From: a virus
Taxonomy: Duplodnaviria; Heunggongvirae; Uroviricota; Caudoviricetes
IMG/VR virus record: IMGVR_UViG_2713897055_000013
Strand: one strand, 5' to 3'
DNA length: 6,783 nucleotides
The notes below the pieces were generated by a model. The model was not told the DNA's origin. It saw only the letters and a program-made list of their open reading frames with translations, and made no database searches. A program made the position numbers and the translations under genes. Positions within the stretch are counted from its first letter, which is position 1. The number at the start of each line of letters is the position of its first letter. Below, one piece after another: positions 1 through 6,783 of the stretch.

Positions 1-201
1 TTTCAGAGCGTTATAGATAGCCAGCCCTTCAAAGATGTCGCCACCAGGTGAATGAATGCTCAGATGGATTTCAGACACATTACCGCACGCGTTGATCTCG
101 TCAGTAAGTGCCGATGCCTTTACACCGTACCCGCCGATCTCGTCATAAATGCGCACATGTACAACATCTGCCATAGCCTTAATGGAAAACCATGTTTTCA
201 T
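1..201 (-). CDS. ClpP/SppA-clan serine protease, probable prohead/head-maturation protease; N-terminal 67 codons only, gene continues past the window start
   Basis: Minus-strand ATG at 199-201 with AGGAG (plus 209-213) 7 nt upstream; frame open to position 1. My translation: MKTWFSIKAMADVVHVRIYDEIGGYGVKASALTDEINACGNVSEIHLSIHSPGGDIFEGLAIYNALK. The I-x-SPGG-x5-G-x-AIY block is the conserved segment of ClpP-fold (S14/S49) proteases. The catalytic Ser lies outside the window. Confidence 0.7.
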   Translation of the reverse strand, partial: MKTWFSIKAMADVVHVRIYDEIGGYGVKASALTDEINACGNVSEIHLSIHSPGGDIFEGLAIYNALK

Positions 202-392
202 AGCCAGGCTCCTAACGTTGCCCTGTACCAGTATTCAACCGCGCTGCGTGTGATTTGTCCTTTCGTGGGCACTGGCATACCCGGGTGATTATCTTTGATG
301 AACTGCTGATAGCGTTCGATCTTCTCCATAGTTCCGGCGTCTATGTGTACCGTGGCACTTTTATCCGGCTTTCTGGTGTTGTTCTCTGGCAT
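198..392 (-). CDS. Hypothetical small protein (64 aa from ATG 390-392; tracked ORF extends to 425), translationally coupled to the protease
   Basis: GGAGG (plus 400-404) 7 nt upstream of ATG 390-392, whereas the upstream ATGs at 425/422 have no SD. Stop TGA overlaps the protease ATG (ATGA at 198-201). Product MPENNTRKPDKSATVHIDAGTMEKIERYQQFIK...; a beta-strand then helix pattern hints at a ribbon-helix-helix fold, unverified. Confidence 0.5.
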   Translation of the reverse strand: MPENNTRKPDKSATVHIDAGTMEKIERYQQFIKDNHPGMPVPTKGQITRSAVEYWYRATLGAWL

Positions 393-587
393 AAATCCGC
401 CTCCGTTTTGATTAACGGGCATCATTATTGATCGATAAAAGTAATAGATAAATCATTTTCTACCATAAAATCAGATTATGTTTTTTCTGATTATTCTCAG
501 AAAGGCAAAGTTATTGACGCATTTTTGCCATTGAAGCAGTATTAAGACTCGTCATCCTGGCGATAAAAACTCCTTTGTCGTGTAAAA

Positions 588-624
588 GCGCCTCCGGTAA
601 CAGCAATCGGGGGCGCTTTTTTTT
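588..624 (+). terminator. Intrinsic terminator-like hairpin followed by T8 (weaker in the minus orientation)
   Basis: GCGCCTCCG (588-596) pairs with CGGGGGCGC (608-616) with one G-U, loop about 11 nt, then T8 at 617-624; a second GCGCC plus T7 follows at 625-638. An A4 run upstream gives a weaker minus-strand reading. Confidence 0.5.
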
Positions 625-821
625 GCGCCTGTTTTTTTGTAAATGCTTTCGGGAACGCTCCAGTGATGAACAAAAAACAACCTGATTCGACACTAAAAAT
701 TTTTATTCTTCAATATATCAATAACTTATAGTGGTGGTGATGGTGCCATAAAAATCAAAAAATGCGCCTTTTTCCGCGCCCCTCCGCCCCGTGGACAGGC
801 CCCCCCCACCAGGAGTACCTA

Positions 822-845
822 CAAAAAAGCCGGATTGCTCCGGCT
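822..845 (-). terminator. Intrinsic terminator downstream of the PerC-like gene
   Basis: AGCCGGA (828-834), loop TTGC, TCCGGCT (839-845); on the minus strand the hairpin is followed by T6 (plus A-run 823-828). It sits 7 nt past the stop at 852-854. Confidence 0.5.
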
Positions 846-851
846 GTGTGA

Positions 852-1124
852 TTAGCTGTCTTGGTAATTACACCATATTTCATCGCTTACACCATCTATA
901 CCCATTTCAGCATAAGTGCGATCTACTGCCTTTCTCAGGTCTCCGAAGTTATCCGGCGGCTCCGGTGGCCTCTGTGCCTTCCTGGAACATTCCAGCCGTC
1001 GCATCGTAACCTGATGCCGTTCCTTGTCTGTCTCCACCAGCTGCATGACTTCACCCCATCGCGCCGCCGCCCTCCGGTAAAATCCTTTCGCCTCGAGTTC
1101 CTCCGCTATGCGGTCATGTATCAT
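852..1124 (-). CDS. PerC-family transcriptional regulator (Pch-like), 90 aa
   Basis: ATG 1122-1124 with GGAGAG SD 7 nt upstream. N-terminus MIHDRIAEELEAKGFYRRAAARWGEVM matches the A-x-x-LE-x-x-G-x-x-RRAA-x-RW signature I recall for PerC/Pch activators. Assignment is from memory of the family, not a search. Confidence 0.55.
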   Translation of the reverse strand: MIHDRIAEELEAKGFYRRAAARWGEVMQLVETDKERHQVTMRRLECSRKAQRPPEPPDNFGDLRKAVDRTYAEMGIDGVSDEIWCNYQDS

Positions 1125-1389
1125 CGCCTGACTCTCCGGTTTTTACGTTGATGGTTGTTACCTGTTCCGCTTCGGCAATCTCCCGTTCTGTCAACGTGGC
1201 AAAGTTTGCCGTCGCTGTGGTCATGAATGCGCTTATCAGTTCGGGATGCTCCTTCGCGTATCCTTCCCCCGCGTGGCGGTCTATTACCCTGATTGCCACC
1301 TTTAAGGCGTGCTCTGTCATGTCTAACGCTTTATATTTCGGCTCTGTTCTGTCTCTGCGCATTTTGGTTATCTCCTCACTCATGCTCAC
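1114..1389 (-). CDS. Hypothetical protein, 91 aa (GTG start at 1387-1389; in-frame ATG at 1381-1383)
   Basis: GAGGTG SD 5 nt upstream of the GTG; overlaps the PerC-like start by 11 nt; same strand as the operon. No family recognised. Confidence 0.45.
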   Translation of the reverse strand: MSMSEEITKMRRDRTEPKYKALDMTEHALKVAIRVIDRHAGEGYAKEHPELISAFMTTATANFATLTEREIAEAEQVTTINVKTGESGDDT

Positions 1390-1576
1390 TTTTACACCTC
1401 ACTTTTTAAAGCGTCTCGCTTCGTCTCACTTGATATTTTTTGATGCTTTATGTGTGTGTTTCATAAGGATTTTTTTTACTCCTCACTTTTGAGCATGTAT
1501 ACAGGTGAGAAAGTGAGTAATCGTGTTAATATTTTGTAAAAACCTCACCATTACTCACTTTTTCTACTCACTTTTT
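1385..1576. repeat. Iteron-like array of CTCAC(T)n repeats flanking an AT-rich core; putative island replication origin
   Basis: CTCACTTTT-type copies at 1385-1393, 1398-1407, 1425-1431, 1482-1490, 1544-1548, 1554-1563 and 1567-1576, plus two inverted GTGAG copies at 1505-1509 and 1513-1517. AT-rich, T-run-rich spacer at about 1430-1480. The array starts at the stop of the 469-aa ATPase gene. Confidence 0.55.
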
Positions 1577-2984
1577 ACAGTGGTCCTACATCATCACCAT
1601 CAATGTAAATCACGGCGTCTTTTTCCAGTTTGGCTAACCATCGCCGCATATTTTTCACGTCATACCCAAGCCGTTTCATGTCATCACGTAACAGCGGGAT
1701 CGTGCACTTGTCGCCGTTCTGTGTGCGTGAACGGATGCACCCCCATAGTGCGGTATGGTTTTCCGTCTTGTTGCCTGCCTCCTCGATGCGTTCCAGTTCA
1801 ACGGGAGGGCGCGGCTTATCCACCACCACCAGCGACGTGATTAACTCCCCGTCAGCGTCGGTAAACAACTCCACCACGCGTAAGTCATATGCGGCTTCTT
1901 TGAGTTCCTCCGCGTCCTTCATTTTGGTGCATGAGATAACCAGCGCTTCGCTTCCTGCGTCCTCCCTGCGTATCCGGTATTCAGCATCCAGTGATGCACG
2001 AAATGCACTGGAACCGCGCGCGCCTTTCGTCTCATCCTTGCCGGAATGGTGAACCACCAGCACCGTGGCCCCTGTGCGTCGTTTCAGTTCGTCACAACCA
2101 CGGATAAACGCCCCCATATCACGGGAATCATTTTCATCATTCCCACCAAAGCAACGCGCCAGCGTATCCAGAATAATCATGCGTACAGGTTTACCCGTTT
2201 CCCGCTCCACCTGACGGGCAGCGATAACCATTTCATCAACATCAAGCGGGACCGCCGGAAAGATGGGACGGTTTACCAGATACAGATTTTTCACCTGCTC
2301 ACCGTGCACAACCTCCCAGGCTTTTACACGACGCGGAACGCCGATACCGCCTTCACCAACCACATAGAGAACAGCGCCATGCGCCACCCTGCGGCCTCCC
2401 CACTGGCGGCCCGTGGAAACGTGACACGCCCACGATCCGGCAAGGAATGATTTATAGGAACCGCTCGCCCCGTATATGCTGCAAAGCGACGATGCCGGAA
2501 TAATCCCCTTTACCACGTAATCAAGCTGTGTGTCGTATCCGGTAGATCCAACGCTCATCGGTAGCGTGGTTTTTCGCTGGGGGATTTTTTTCATGACCAG
2601 GCTTTCCCCGCGTTCCCATGCCTCCCTAAGCCGTGGAAGCTGGTCGCTCCATTCCTCCAGCAATTCGAAATTTTCAGAAAGTAGCCGCGCCTCCTGGACT
2701 CCGGCGATCGCCAGTTTCGTGGCGATGGTTAACAGCTGCGGCTCTTCAATATTTCCGGCGCGTATCACCGTCGCCCTGTATCGCCCATCATCAACAATCT
2801 GGAGGTTATCCAGTTCGCTTAACTGATAACGCCCCAGATAAACGGGAGGGACTGGATCGCCTGCTTTTTTGGCCTGTGCAATGATGTAATGCTCTGCGAA
2901 TGAGTGAGCATCAATACCCGCAAAAATAATCGCATCGGTGTATTTGTCTTGCGGTAATCGTTTTACGTTCGGTGCCAGTTTCAT
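1575..2984 (-). CDS. RecA-fold P-loop ATPase of the AAA_25 / RepA-DnaB-like type, 469 aa; putative island replication initiator/helicase
   Basis: Long ORF with GGGGT SD 6 nt upstream of the ATG. P-loop-like IYGASGSYKSF (aa 172-179), Walker B-like VRMIILDTL, then VLVVHHSGKD and GSSAFRASLDAEYRI blocks typical of RepA-like RecA-fold ATPases. About 100 aa of C-terminal extension could be a DNA-binding domain. Followed directly by the iteron array. Confidence 0.85.
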   Translation of the reverse strand: MKLAPNVKRLPQDKYTDAIIFAGIDAHSFAEHYIIAQAKKAGDPVPPVYLGRYQLSELDNLQIVDDGRYRATVIRAGNIEEPQLLTIATKLAIAGVQEARLLSENFELLEEWSDQLPRLREAWERGESLVMKKIPQRKTTLPMSVGSTGYDTQLDYVVKGIIPASSLCSIYGASGSYKSFLAGSWACHVSTGRQWGGRRVAHGAVLYVVGEGGIGVPRRVKAWEVVHGEQVKNLYLVNRPIFPAVPLDVDEMVIAARQVERETGKPVRMIILDTLARCFGGNDENDSRDMGAFIRGCDELKRRTGATVLVVHHSGKDETKGARGSSAFRASLDAEYRIRREDAGSEALVISCTKMKDAEELKEAAYDLRVVELFTDADGELITSLVVVDKPRPPVELERIEEAGNKTENHTALWGCIRSRTQNGDKCTIPLLRDDMKRLGYDVKNMRRWLAKLEKDAVIYIDGDDVGPL

Positions 2985-3280
2985 TTTTTACCCCTGAATA
3001 CGTTAAGCATCTTTTTTATTTCCTGAATATTGGCGCGTGCTTTCTCCCTGCTGGTTGGTTTACTGCGGGGCGCTGCCTGTACCAGAGAAAAATCACGATC
3101 GAACTGATAAACAGGCATAACGCAATCATATTCGTAGCCTTCACGGCGGTAAGTGATGCGCCGTTCCTCCACGCCTTTAATCGTTACCGTGCCGCCGTAC
3201 TGGTCGCGGTAAATATCACCGCGCGTAAATTTAGGGTGAGTGTTGCCACTGGCAGTTAAGCCAGAATATTTAAGTTTCAT
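2981..3280 (-). CDS. Hypothetical protein, 99 aa, translationally coupled to the ATPase gene
   Basis: Stop TGA overlaps the ATPase ATG (ATGA at 2981-2984); GGAG about 9-10 nt upstream of ATG 3278-3280. No family recognised. Confidence 0.6.
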   Translation of the reverse strand: MKLKYSGLTASGNTHPKFTRGDIYRDQYGGTVTIKGVEERRITYRREGYEYDCVMPVYQFDRDFSLVQAAPRSKPTSREKARANIQEIKKMLNVFRGKK

Positions 3281-3285
3281 TATTT

Positions 3286-3516
3286 TTATTCTCCGGTGTG
3301 GGGCGAGTTATTATTCTCGTGAATTGCCATTGCCTTATCCAGTTCATCAATAACAGGCGATAGTAATGTCTGAATGGCTGCAAACATTAATACACCTGAT
3401 TCTTCACCACCTTCCGGCACTTCAATTAATTTAATTAACAACGCATTCATTTCGCGTGCTTTAATTAATGCGTTTTCAGAGTGGATTAATACTTCAAAAG
3501 GGATTTTATGCATCAC
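3286..3516 (-). CDS. Hypothetical small protein, about 75 aa, in the AT-rich cassette (start GTG 3514-3516 or ATG 3511-3513)
   Basis: AGGGAG (plus 3524-3529) 7 nt upstream of the GTG; start overlaps the stop of the upstream ORF (GTGATGCATAA). Lies in a strongly AT-rich stretch. Confidence 0.5.
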   Translation of the reverse strand: MMHKIPFEVLIHSENALIKAREMNALLIKLIEVPEGGEESGVLMFAAIQTLLSPVIDELDKAMAIHENNNSPHTGE

Positions 3517-4836: not shown

Positions 4837-5045
4837 TTAAGCGGTCGTTCCGCGCGCTTCTTGTTCGCGTTCTTTCATCCATGCGATTACGTCTTCCTCA
4901 TACCATCCGCGACGGCGCAAACCGACACGAAAACCCTGCGGGAATTCTCCGGCGTTGATCATGCTTTGCAGCGTGCTGTCTGCCTTAATGTGGATAAGTT
5001 TTTTTTACTTCCTGGCGAAAGATGACTTTTTTTGATTGCTTCCAT
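4837..5045 (-). pseudogene. AlpA/excisionase-family-like small regulator interrupted by a frameshift at an A8 run (pseudogene or frameshift-dependent gene)
   Basis: ATG 5043-5045 with GAGGT SD 8 nt upstream opens a frame (MEAIKKSHLSPGSKKN...) that stops at 4959-4961. The -1 frame continues from the A8 run (plus T8 4999-5006) as ...LIHIKADSTLQSMINAGEFPQGFRVGLRRRGWYEEDVIAWMKEREQEARGTTA to a stop at 4837-4839. That C-terminal segment resembles the AlpA/Xis recognition-helix and wing region. Confidence 0.45.
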
Positions 5046-5175
5046 CGTGATTTACCTCATTAATCCGGTGTATTCCGGTGAGAAATACGGTAAATCATCG
5101 GATGCAGGGAAAAACAGTACTCACCGTTTTTAAACGGTATACACAGTTTTTTATATTGATGATTTGAAAGGGATT

Positions 5176-5541: not shown

Positions 5542-6783
5542 CTAAACGGCTCGGATACCCCTTTTACCACTGGCGAGGGTTACGCCCGTCGCCGCAGCCT
5601 CGACAAATTCGCCCCACCAGCGCATAAGCACGATGCGTTTTTCTATGTAGTTGCTCCGGTTGTATGCCCGTCTGACTTCGTTGGTGTCGACGTGGGCAAG
5701 TGCGGCCTCTATTACGTCCGGCTCAAAGCCTTCTTCGTTCGCTGCTGTGCTGAATATGGCGCGTAATCCATGAGACACCAGCACGCCAGCGAATCCCATG
5801 CGTCGTAATGCTGCGTTAGCGGTCTGGCTGTTCATCGGCTGCTGTGGGTCTTTCAGACTCGGGAAAACATAATCGCGGTGGTGGCTGATTGGTTTCATAG
5901 CCTCCAGCACTGCCATAGCCTGGTCACAAAGCGGGATAACGTGGTCGCGGCGCATCTTCATGCGTCCGGCGGGTATGGTCCAGCGTTGCGCTTCCATGTC
6001 GATTTCTTCCCAGCGTGCCGACGATGCTTCAACGGGACGGGTTACGGTCAGTAACTGCCATTCAATCAGTAATCTGGTCTGCCGTTCTGTTGCCGATACT
6101 GATAAAGCCTGCATAAGCTCCGGCAGCTGTTCGGGGCGGATTGTTGGCATATGTTTTTTTACAGGGGAGGGGAACGCCTTACGCACATTCATAGCCGGAT
6201 TGGCATCAATCATCCCACTATTGGCGGCGTAATCCATTACCTCATTTATACGCTGTAAAACTCGCTTGAGCGTTTCCAGGTTGCCACGTTCCTTGATGGG
6301 GGTAAGCACCTCAACGAACCTGCGAGCGGTCAGGGTGTCTATTGGCGTGTTGCCGATGAACGGGAATACATATTTTTCCAGCGATCGCCAGATGTCTTTA
6401 ATCGTATTGGGGGCCAGATTCTGGCTGATTTTCACCTGGTACCATGCTGTTGCCACATTTTCGAACGTGTTCCCTTGTCTTCGGGCCTCTGTCTCTCTTT
6501 TTTGCCTCTCGTGGTCCTGTGGGTCAGTTCCGGCACGAATTAACGCCCTGTACTCGCTACGGCGTTTTCTGGCATCAGCCAGGGAAACATCATCAAGCGA
6601 TCCAAAACTCAGCAATATTCTTTTTTTGTCCGATGGTCGGTAGTAGGAAAATCTCCAGAGTTTTGATCCGGACGGTTTGATCAGGAGAAAAAGCCCTCCG
6701 CCGTCCTGTAGGGTGTATTCCTTTTCTGCTGGTCTGGCTGCTTTGATCTGTACTGTGGTTAATGGGGGTGTTTTTCTCGCCAT
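5542..6783 (-). CDS. int: Tyrosine recombinase, P4-type integrase (N-terminal arm-binding domain plus C-terminal catalytic domain), 413 aa
   Basis: N-terminus MARKTPPLTTVQIKAARPAEKEYTLQDGGGLFLLIKPSGSKLWRFSYYRP matches the characteristic start of P4-family integrases. C-terminal HGLRAIFST (H-x-x-R) and a terminal RAYNRSNY block fit the catalytic region. ATG is 6781-6783, so upstream signals and the att site are outside the window. Confidence 0.9.
   Translation of the reverse strand: MARKTPPLTTVQIKAARPAEKEYTLQDGGGLFLLIKPSGSKLWRFSYYRPSDKKRILLSFGSLDDVSLADARKRRSEYRALIRAGTDPQDHERQKRETEARRQGNTFENVATAWYQVKISQNLAPNTIKDIWRSLEKYVFPFIGNTPIDTLTARRFVEVLTPIKERGNLETLKRVLQRINEVMDYAANSGMIDANPAMNVRKAFPSPVKKHMPTIRPEQLPELMQALSVSATERQTRLLIEWQLLTVTRPVEASSARWEEIDMEAQRWTIPAGRMKMRRDHVIPLCDQAMAVLEAMKPISHHRDYVFPSLKDPQQPMNSQTANAALRRMGFAGVLVSHGLRAIFSTAANEEGFEPDVIEAALAHVDTNEVRRAYNRSNYIEKRIVLMRWWGEFVEAAATGVTLASGKRGIRAV

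Follow-up and report, generated by a model that had tools for sequence, protein, structure and literature searches.

The stretch of DNA analysed here, 6,783 nucleotides (nt) of the Caudoviricetes record IMGVR_UViG_2713897055_000013 in IMG/VR (the window, below), ends on its left within a Gifsy-2-type tripartite capsid gene, in which prohead protease, scaffold or linker, and HK97-type major capsid protein (MCP) make up one chain. The assignment of positions 1-201 to the 5' end of such a gene is confirmed for close relatives of the window, in which the gene is complete. The element is a phage satellite, as a first reading made from the letters alone (the sequence-only reading) had proposed. From comparison with these relatives it is probably a classical Gram-negative phage-inducible chromosomal island (PICI) of about 9.6 kb, dependent on a helper phage, with the tripartite gene as the main gene of its late zone.

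Translated on the minus strand from position 201 down to position 1, the window gives 67 codons, MKTWFSIKAMADVVHVRIYDEIGGYGVKASALTDEINACGNVSEIHLSIHSPGGDIFEGLAIYNALK, in an open reading frame (ORF) that is still open at the left edge. Three features lie together at this end:

1 to 201, minus strand: 5' end (67 codons) of a tripartite capsid gene of about 629 amino acids (aa), comprising ClpP-fold prohead protease, scaffold/linker and HK97-type MCP (from translation, Pfam, PHROG and the relative in locus L001)
209 to 213, minus strand: Shine-Dalgarno sequence AGGAG, 7 nt 5' of the protease ATG and within the 3' end of the small ORF (read off the sequence)
198 to 425, minus strand: satellite-specific small ORF, 75 aa at its maximal length (from the ORF listing)

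The fragment matches Pfam CLP_protease over residues 41-67 at 24.9 bits (gathering score 20.2; E = 2e-5) and PHROG 133, "head maturation protease", over residues 2-67 (E = 1.4e-28), and it is only 1-4 residues off annotated proteins of complete E. coli genomes. By these scores the resemblance is no chance match. The catalytic residues Ser83 and His106 and the entire capsid domain lie beyond the window, which stops at residue 67, and they are known through relatives only.

Positions 1-3300 of the window are 98% identical in DNA to several complete E. coli chromosomes, the best being locus L001, where the gene occupies 12312-14201 and encodes 629 aa. Pfam places CLP_protease at residues 41-173 (E = 4e-33) and Phage_capsid_4 at residues 330-623 (E = 1e-54), PHROG 133 is matched at E = 2e-280, and RefSeq names the product [quoted passage not shown]. 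Because the full-length gene in relatives this close is a protease-scaffold-MCP fusion, the island would appear to encode capsid components of its own, as the sequence-only reading had suggested. That reading had also called the protease a prohead type and not a housekeeping ClpP, and here too the complete protein of the relatives bears it out: solved ClpP structures align just to residues ~38-177 of the 629. It is no stand-alone ClpP of about 200 aa and no SppA architecture in a cellular setting; the gene is a 629-aa fusion within a mobile element.

Among phages, relatives of the fusion occur in lambdoid siphoviruses whose protease/coat gene is fused in the Gifsy-2 manner, namely mEp460, cdtI, CP-1639, 1720a-02, the long-tailed Stx phages and Sp15. 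Their genes (mEp460 gp05, cdtI orf5 and the genes of Sp15, CP-1639 and 1720a-02) share the architecture of the satellite gene, are collinear with it over residues 2-623 at about 51% identity, and conserve the same ClpP-like Ser and His. The setting is different. In the phages the tripartite gene sits within a full head operon (TerS, TerL, adaptor, portal, fusion, decoration), whereas the satellite gene stands alone behind the satellite-specific small ORF. In a scan of one genome per species, about 40 loci were of the phage type, preceded by TerS, TerL, adaptor and portal, and six were of the satellite type (Kluyvera, two; Yersinia; Buttiauxella; Moellerella; Rahnella), in which a homologue of the small ORF comes immediately before the fusion and no portal adjoins it. 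The eight satellite copies, drawn from six genera, group in one clade apart from the phage genes (100/100 bootstrap), and the small ORF precedes all eight. A Pro/Ala/Val-rich linker of 25-35 residues, which follows the protease domain in the phage versions, is missing after residue ~207 (L001 numbering) from every satellite copy, and the E. coli islands have lost it entirely. On this evidence the satellite tripartite genes make up a satellite-specific clade, and it would appear an old lineage.

The island-type gene is present in 144 of 5,426 complete E. coli genomes (the phage-clade gene in 2,070), is full length in 143 of the 144, and is at least 95% identical in 141. Among four copies from different islands, the ratio of nonsynonymous to synonymous substitution rates (dN/dS) is 0.09-0.11 for five of the six pairs and 0.31 for the sixth; taken by part, it is 0.08 for the protease, 0.16 for the linker/scaffold and 0.18 for the MCP. 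Ser83 and His106 are invariant in all 31 full-length homologues, and Asp170 is kept in 29. These values show, at the level of sequence comparison, a fusion gene under purifying selection, with all three parts constrained.

The small ORF in front of the fusion was described in the sequence-only reading as translationally coupled to the protease, and the overlap agrees with this: its stop codon TGA (200-198) and the protease start codon ATG (201-199) share bases in an ATGA. The better-supported start is Met12, an ATG at 392-390 with GGAGG at 404-400, which gives a protein of 64 aa and agrees with several homologues and with one RefSeq annotation. The ORF is identical in the window and in loci L001, L082 and L084, and a homologue lies directly 5' of the fusion in six satellites of other genera, with the ATGA overlap in four of the five checked. 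It matches PHROG 4934, a family of unknown function, at E = 2e-51. Its homologues amount to 12 clusters only, all enterobacterial and uncharacterised, and tblastn finds no match to it among 50,697 phage records. The AlphaFold (AF2) model, built from a 9-sequence alignment, has a mean predicted confidence (pLDDT) of 59.6 and consists of two helices only. Foldseek returns no match against the PDB at E ≤ 0.001, there is no PDB profile match, and Pfam holds nothing relevant at E ≤ 10. A ribbon-helix-helix fold, suspected from the sequence pattern, gained no support from any of these four.

The island in L001 is about 9.6 kb long and adjoins tRNA-Pro, with att-like repeats 9.6 kb apart. Past the 3' end of the fusion come an annotated ORF of 67 aa, an ORF of 93 aa and an att-like repeat, after which the chromosome resumes with yejO; the island ends about 0.8 kb beyond the fusion. 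All four E. coli copies examined (L001, 042, 2017.17.03CC and NE122) have only a cos copy, the 93-aa ORF and the island end on this side. The islands of strains 042 and 2017.17.03CC have a different integrase and occupy the cspD/clpS site with the same cassette, and altogether the cassette ends islands in three integration contexts: beside tRNA-Pro, at the cspD/clpS site, and inside a prophage terL. The annotation and ORF lists of the four E. coli islands include no portal, adaptor/connector, HNH, TerS or TerL gene. Inside six related satellites from other genera there is no tblastn match to portal or TerL, no match to the head-tail adaptor, and no ORF of portal size 3' of the fusion. The sequence-only reading had named capsid, portal and terminase genes as what to seek further left, their lack counting against it; in the relatives the capsid gene is there, while portal and terminase genes were not found. 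Its likening of the element to a capsid-forming PICI (cf-PICI) must accordingly be given up for the E. coli relatives. The definition of a cf-PICI takes in capsid, protease, portal, head-tail connectors, HNH, TerS and TerL, with only tails taken from the helper, and De Sousa et al. set cf-PICIs apart from PICIs by adaptor/connector genes and terL. The cf-PICIs (prototype EcCIEDL933) resemble the present island in their PICI backbone, their own capsid protein and their maturation protease, but they also have portal, head-tail connectors, HNH, TerS and TerL, none of which is in the E. coli islands. Lacking portal, adaptor and terminase, the island would depend on a lambdoid helper of the mEp460/CP-1639/1720a-02/Sp15 group. 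Such helpers are common, as 2,070 of the 5,426 E. coli genomes have the phage-clade gene.

A 127-nt direct repeat, a cos region, lies on both sides of the cassette, the upstream copy falling in the window between the perC terminator and the small ORF:

655 to 826 (approximate), minus strand: cosA, a complete helper-type cosN-cosB region with a cosN-like core, CACGGGGCGGAGGGGCGCGG, at 793-774 (from comparison with phage cos regions)

The other copy, just 3' of the fusion in the relatives, is shorter (12180-12306 in L001), although in E. coli O157:H7 NE122 the downstream copy is more complete (204 nt vs 94 nt). The segment just 5' of terS in phages 1720a-02 and CP-1639 is 91.7% identical to cosA over 95% of its length, and the equivalent segment of mEp460 is 75% identical over 159 nt (E = 6e-22). 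The record of phage cdtI starts exactly at the homologous GGGCGGGAGCGT, which is the position of the 12-nt cohesive end of lambda, GGGCGGCGACCT. By this similarity to phage segments 5' of terS, and by the start of the cdtI record, the island carries a complete helper-type cosN-cosB. The cosN core pattern occurs once in the window, against a chance expectation of 0. Among the loci searched the exact core matches only the two L001 copies and nothing in the EcCICFT073 locus (L002); a longer core pattern has no match in mEp460 within 3 mismatches, and gapped alignment shows the two to be related, with indels. The cos repeats could serve as recombination sites for cassette exchange.

A late-zone capsid gene homologous to a helper gene is in itself an already known and common feature of Gram-negative PICIs. 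Of 29 reference Gram-negative PICIs, 21 carry a capsid gene, and the late zone of such islands captures helper late genes and has a cos-like segment common to satellite and helper. EcCICFT073 is the closest in layout, with the same order as here: PerC with the same terminator, a small ORF overlapping the capsid start, the capsid gene, and the terminal 93-aa ORF. Like the present island it has no portal or terminase and relies on cos-type packaging by the helper terminase. Its cassette is different, with a lambda gpE-like MCP (c1499) and a gpD-like decoration protein (c1500) followed by rppA, in place of the single protease-scaffold-MCP fusion of the present island, and no sequence similarity was found between the fusion and its capsid protein. 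EcCICFT073 has RppA; no Rpp homologue was found in the island here, nor TerS in the E. coli-type islands. Unlike EcCICFT073, the island here has a cos almost the same as that of the helper, with one copy on each side of the cassette. Homology of the small ORF to the 68-aa ORF that precedes the EcCICFT073 capsid gene was considered and is unsupported, with no BLAST alignment and an hhalign E of 0.13 at a probability below 1%.

Two further systems bear on what such a gene might do. SaPIbov5, a staphylococcal PICI with the protein Ccm, is likewise a cos-type satellite with a helper cos and a diverged homologue of the helper capsid protein. It is the closest worked-out precedent for how such a protein can redirect assembly, the pentamers of its small T=4 shells being made of Ccm. 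This protein shares 24% identity with the helper capsid protein, has no protease domain and makes no shells alone, whereas here identity is about 51% and the protease, scaffold and shell parts are all kept. Capsid size redirection has not been reported for any E. coli PICI, and EcCICFT073 travels in full-size heads. The helper-embedded PICIs (HE-PICIs; e.g. Eco567.11capE; NAR Genom Bioinform 2023) have a helper late gene, mostly capsid, in a copy of their own, and a cos-like segment in common with their helper. The present cassette family, too, has helper-embedded members, in terL (NE122) or in the tripartite gene (Kluyvera, Rahnella), but the closest relative of the window island is chromosomal beside tRNA-Pro and not in a prophage, and 11capE has a capsid gene of lambda-E type.

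These embedded members give natural pairs of satellite and helper. In E. coli O157:H7 NE122 (L082, 1373-13925) a satellite with the same cassette is inserted in the terL of a lambdoid prophage that has a protease/MCP fusion of its own, and the only terL there is the helper's, split by the satellite. Satellite and helper fusions within this one genome are 51.5% identical in protein, and the cos copies 83-85% in DNA. In Kluyvera genomosp. 1 (L006, 3236-16146) and Rahnella victoriana (L073, 2660-15203) the satellites split the helper tripartite gene at about codons 98-112 and keep their own intact, diverged copy.

We propose the following course of events. On helper induction the island would excise and replicate; the helper would supply terminase, acting on the island cos, together with portal and tail; and the tripartite protein, made late and processed by its own Ser83/His106 protease, would enter procapsid assembly on helper portals and form or co-form shells. 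As to its specific role, we tentatively favour, at somewhat less than an even chance, shells that benefit the satellite at the expense of the helper, a competition or size redirection of the Ccm kind that is not strictly needed for transfer. A bolder version, which we hold to be unlikely, is a "half-way" capsid-forming satellite whose own and perhaps smaller shells would be built on helper portals and filled via the copied cos, with the loss of the linker aiding this and with the 64-aa protein as an assembly or regulatory factor. If this were true, such a satellite would stand, in evolutionary terms, between the classical PICIs and the cf-PICIs.

Several points weigh against the proposal. The window itself holds 67 codons only, and everything to the left is drawn from relatives and not from this contig. 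Deleting c1499 or c1500 from EcCICFT073 changed neither its transfer nor its interference with lambda, and the DNA it packages is phage-sized, so that the roles of spare copy and of pure interference, described below, both stay live; the capsid gene may by analogy be dispensable or conditional. The interrupted helper genes of Kluyvera and Rahnella fit a spare copy as well as they fit redirection. The island cosN cores differ from those of every candidate helper by indels of 1-2 nt, so recognition by any given terminase is only putative. No sigma-70-like promoter is predicted for the capsid operon in positions 1-1200, and cos is separated from the small ORF by a hairpin that resembles a terminator (584-620); expression of the capsid operon may need an activator or antitermination. 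Finally, the AlpA-like regulator is frameshifted in this copy, and for that reason this particular island may be inactive.

The strongest competitor is a spare or complementing copy, that is, a late gene captured from a helper and serving mainly in place of the helper's gene, for example when the latter is interrupted, and otherwise near-neutral cargo. This role is proposed in the HE-PICI paper, where knockout of a PICI capsid gene is tolerated; deletion of c1499 is likewise without phenotype, and L006 and L073 present the very situation, a split helper gene beside an intact satellite copy. But the satellite gene is only about 51% identical to the helper's, even within one genome, and it belongs to a clade that is old, confined to satellites and marked by a partner ORF and a linker deletion of its own, which together argue against recent capture. 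The E. coli copies, moreover, sit at chromosomal sites or in terL with the helper capsid gene intact, and a dN/dS of about 0.1 speaks against neutrality. We consider this reading improbable on balance, though the best of the alternatives to shells made for the satellite's benefit.

Pure interference is less probable still. Here the product would be a poison or decoy subunit, or a protease turned on helper proteins, that blocks helper assembly or maturation and takes no part in satellite particles. Satellites do often disturb helper assembly, and the gene is diverged from the helper's yet constrained, with catalytic residues kept. Against this, the shell domain and the other two parts alike are collinear with the phage versions (residues 2-623) and constrained, which is beyond what a poison subunit needs, and the analogues in EcCICFT073 did not mediate interference with lambda. 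A true cf-PICI, with complete capsids, portal and terminase of its own and only tails from the helper, would account for a PICI backbone joined to a protease and a capsid protein; with no portal, adaptor/connector, HNH or TerL in four E. coli or six other-genus copies, an island end about 0.8 kb past the fusion and a helper-type cos carried instead, it is very improbable. That we are dealing with a decaying prophage remnant, or with a housekeeping ClpP or SppA lying by chance beside an integrase, is scarcely credible: the ClpP-fold match and the abundance of lambdoid prophage debris in E. coli would suit it, but the gene is a 629-aa fusion with a capsid domain to which solved ClpPs align at residues 38-177 only, it is intact in 143 of 144 genomes at a dN/dS of about 0.1, and it has a fixed place at the end of a PICI backbone between att-like repeats 9.6 kb apart.

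What is new here is modest, and consists of the satellite clade of tripartite capsid genes, the purifying selection on it, the coupled small ORF, and the presence of cos on both sides of the cassette. Capsid genes are present in most reference Gram-negative PICIs, yet the one tested had no phenotype. The cassette would make a convenient test case, having protease, scaffold and shell in one gene, under selection, with a partner ORF found only in satellites. O157:H7 and other Shiga-toxin-producing strains supply natural satellite/helper pairs in cis, and the helpers include relatives of Stx phages. Such loci are better annotated as satellites than as prophage remnants or cf-PICIs.

Two further signals surround the start of the capsid operon:

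828 to 845, minus strand: intrinsic terminator after perC (from a terminator scan; the identical hairpin occurs in L002, EcCICFT073)
584 to 620, no strand assigned: hairpin separating cos from the small ORF, strong and GC-rich, with an A-run on one side and a T-run on the other, resembling a terminator in either orientation (from RNA folding of 426-660)

The stem at 584-620 appears in both the minimum free energy and the centroid structures, and the plus strand has a terminator-like call at 611-630. The only Rfam match, on this hairpin, is below threshold (24 bits vs 50). The proposal that the protease opens a second operon is plausible on one count, the terminator 3' of perC being followed by 420 nt of intergenic sequence; the promoter prediction in positions 1-1200, which found none of the sigma-70 type, does not support it.

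All genes of the window are on the minus strand and run from the integrase, in the unidirectional order of a classical Gram-negative PICI, a class of about 10-20 kb in size. Integrase, RepA, PerC and the terminal 93-aa ORF make up a backbone that the island has in common with EcCICFT073. The integrase and replication genes noted in the sequence-only reading are both borne out by Pfam domains. The backbone genes are:

5542 to 6783, minus strand: tyrosine integrase with arm-binding domain, its start codon ending at the last base of the window (Pfam Phage_integrase, Phage_int_M, Arm-DNA-bind_3)
4837 to 5046, minus strand: AlpA-like helix-turn-helix (HTH) regulator gene, out of frame in the window (two single-A insertions in homopolymer runs)
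1575 to 3280, minus strand: replication module, made up of a DUF4222 protein (2981-3280; Pfam DUF4222, E = 7e-24) and a RepA-type helicase (1575-2984; Pfam AAA_25, E = 1e-43), also named in the RefSeq annotation of a relative
852 to 1124, minus strand: PerC-family regulator, last gene of the upstream operon (Pfam PerC, E = 1e-43; 81% identity to CFT073 PerC by tblastn)

The AlpA-like product is an HTH protein at the expected position, and in both the window and the L001 copies it scores 16.7-17.8 bits against Pfam Phage_AlpA (cut-off 21). Compared with L001, the window has A7 for A6 and A8 for A7, in two poly-A runs at ~5010-5035 that fall within the first ~13 codons, and the other 55 residues are 100% identical. 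The frameshift is either a homopolymer sequencing error or the mark of an inactivated, possibly phase-variable, master regulator.

The region 3' of the fusion, seen in the relatives, holds some minor ORFs:

L001 11773-12054 and L002 3374-3655: terminal 93-aa ORF (PHROG 1561, unknown function), 78-88% identical between the island type and EcCICFT073
L005 7382-8225, L007 12401-13024, L008 12110-13509 and L073 12442-13050: extra ORFs 3' of the fusion in satellites of other genera

The 93-aa ORF is a conserved PICI end gene despite the unrelated capsid cassettes that precede it. In L001 the annotated 67-aa "hypothetical protein" (12173-12376; PHROG 5188) lies partly over the 3' end of the fusion and partly over the downstream cos copy. 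Phage annotations likewise place ORFs that resemble it across cos, and it is probably no real gene but an artefact of annotation. A TerS-like ORF, 35-41% identical to mEp460 TerS, is found in L005, L006 and L008 and not in the E. coli islands. An ORF of about 200 aa follows the fusion in L005, L007, L008 and L073, again not in the E. coli islands, and its N-terminus is reminiscent of that of the lambda tail assembly protein I.

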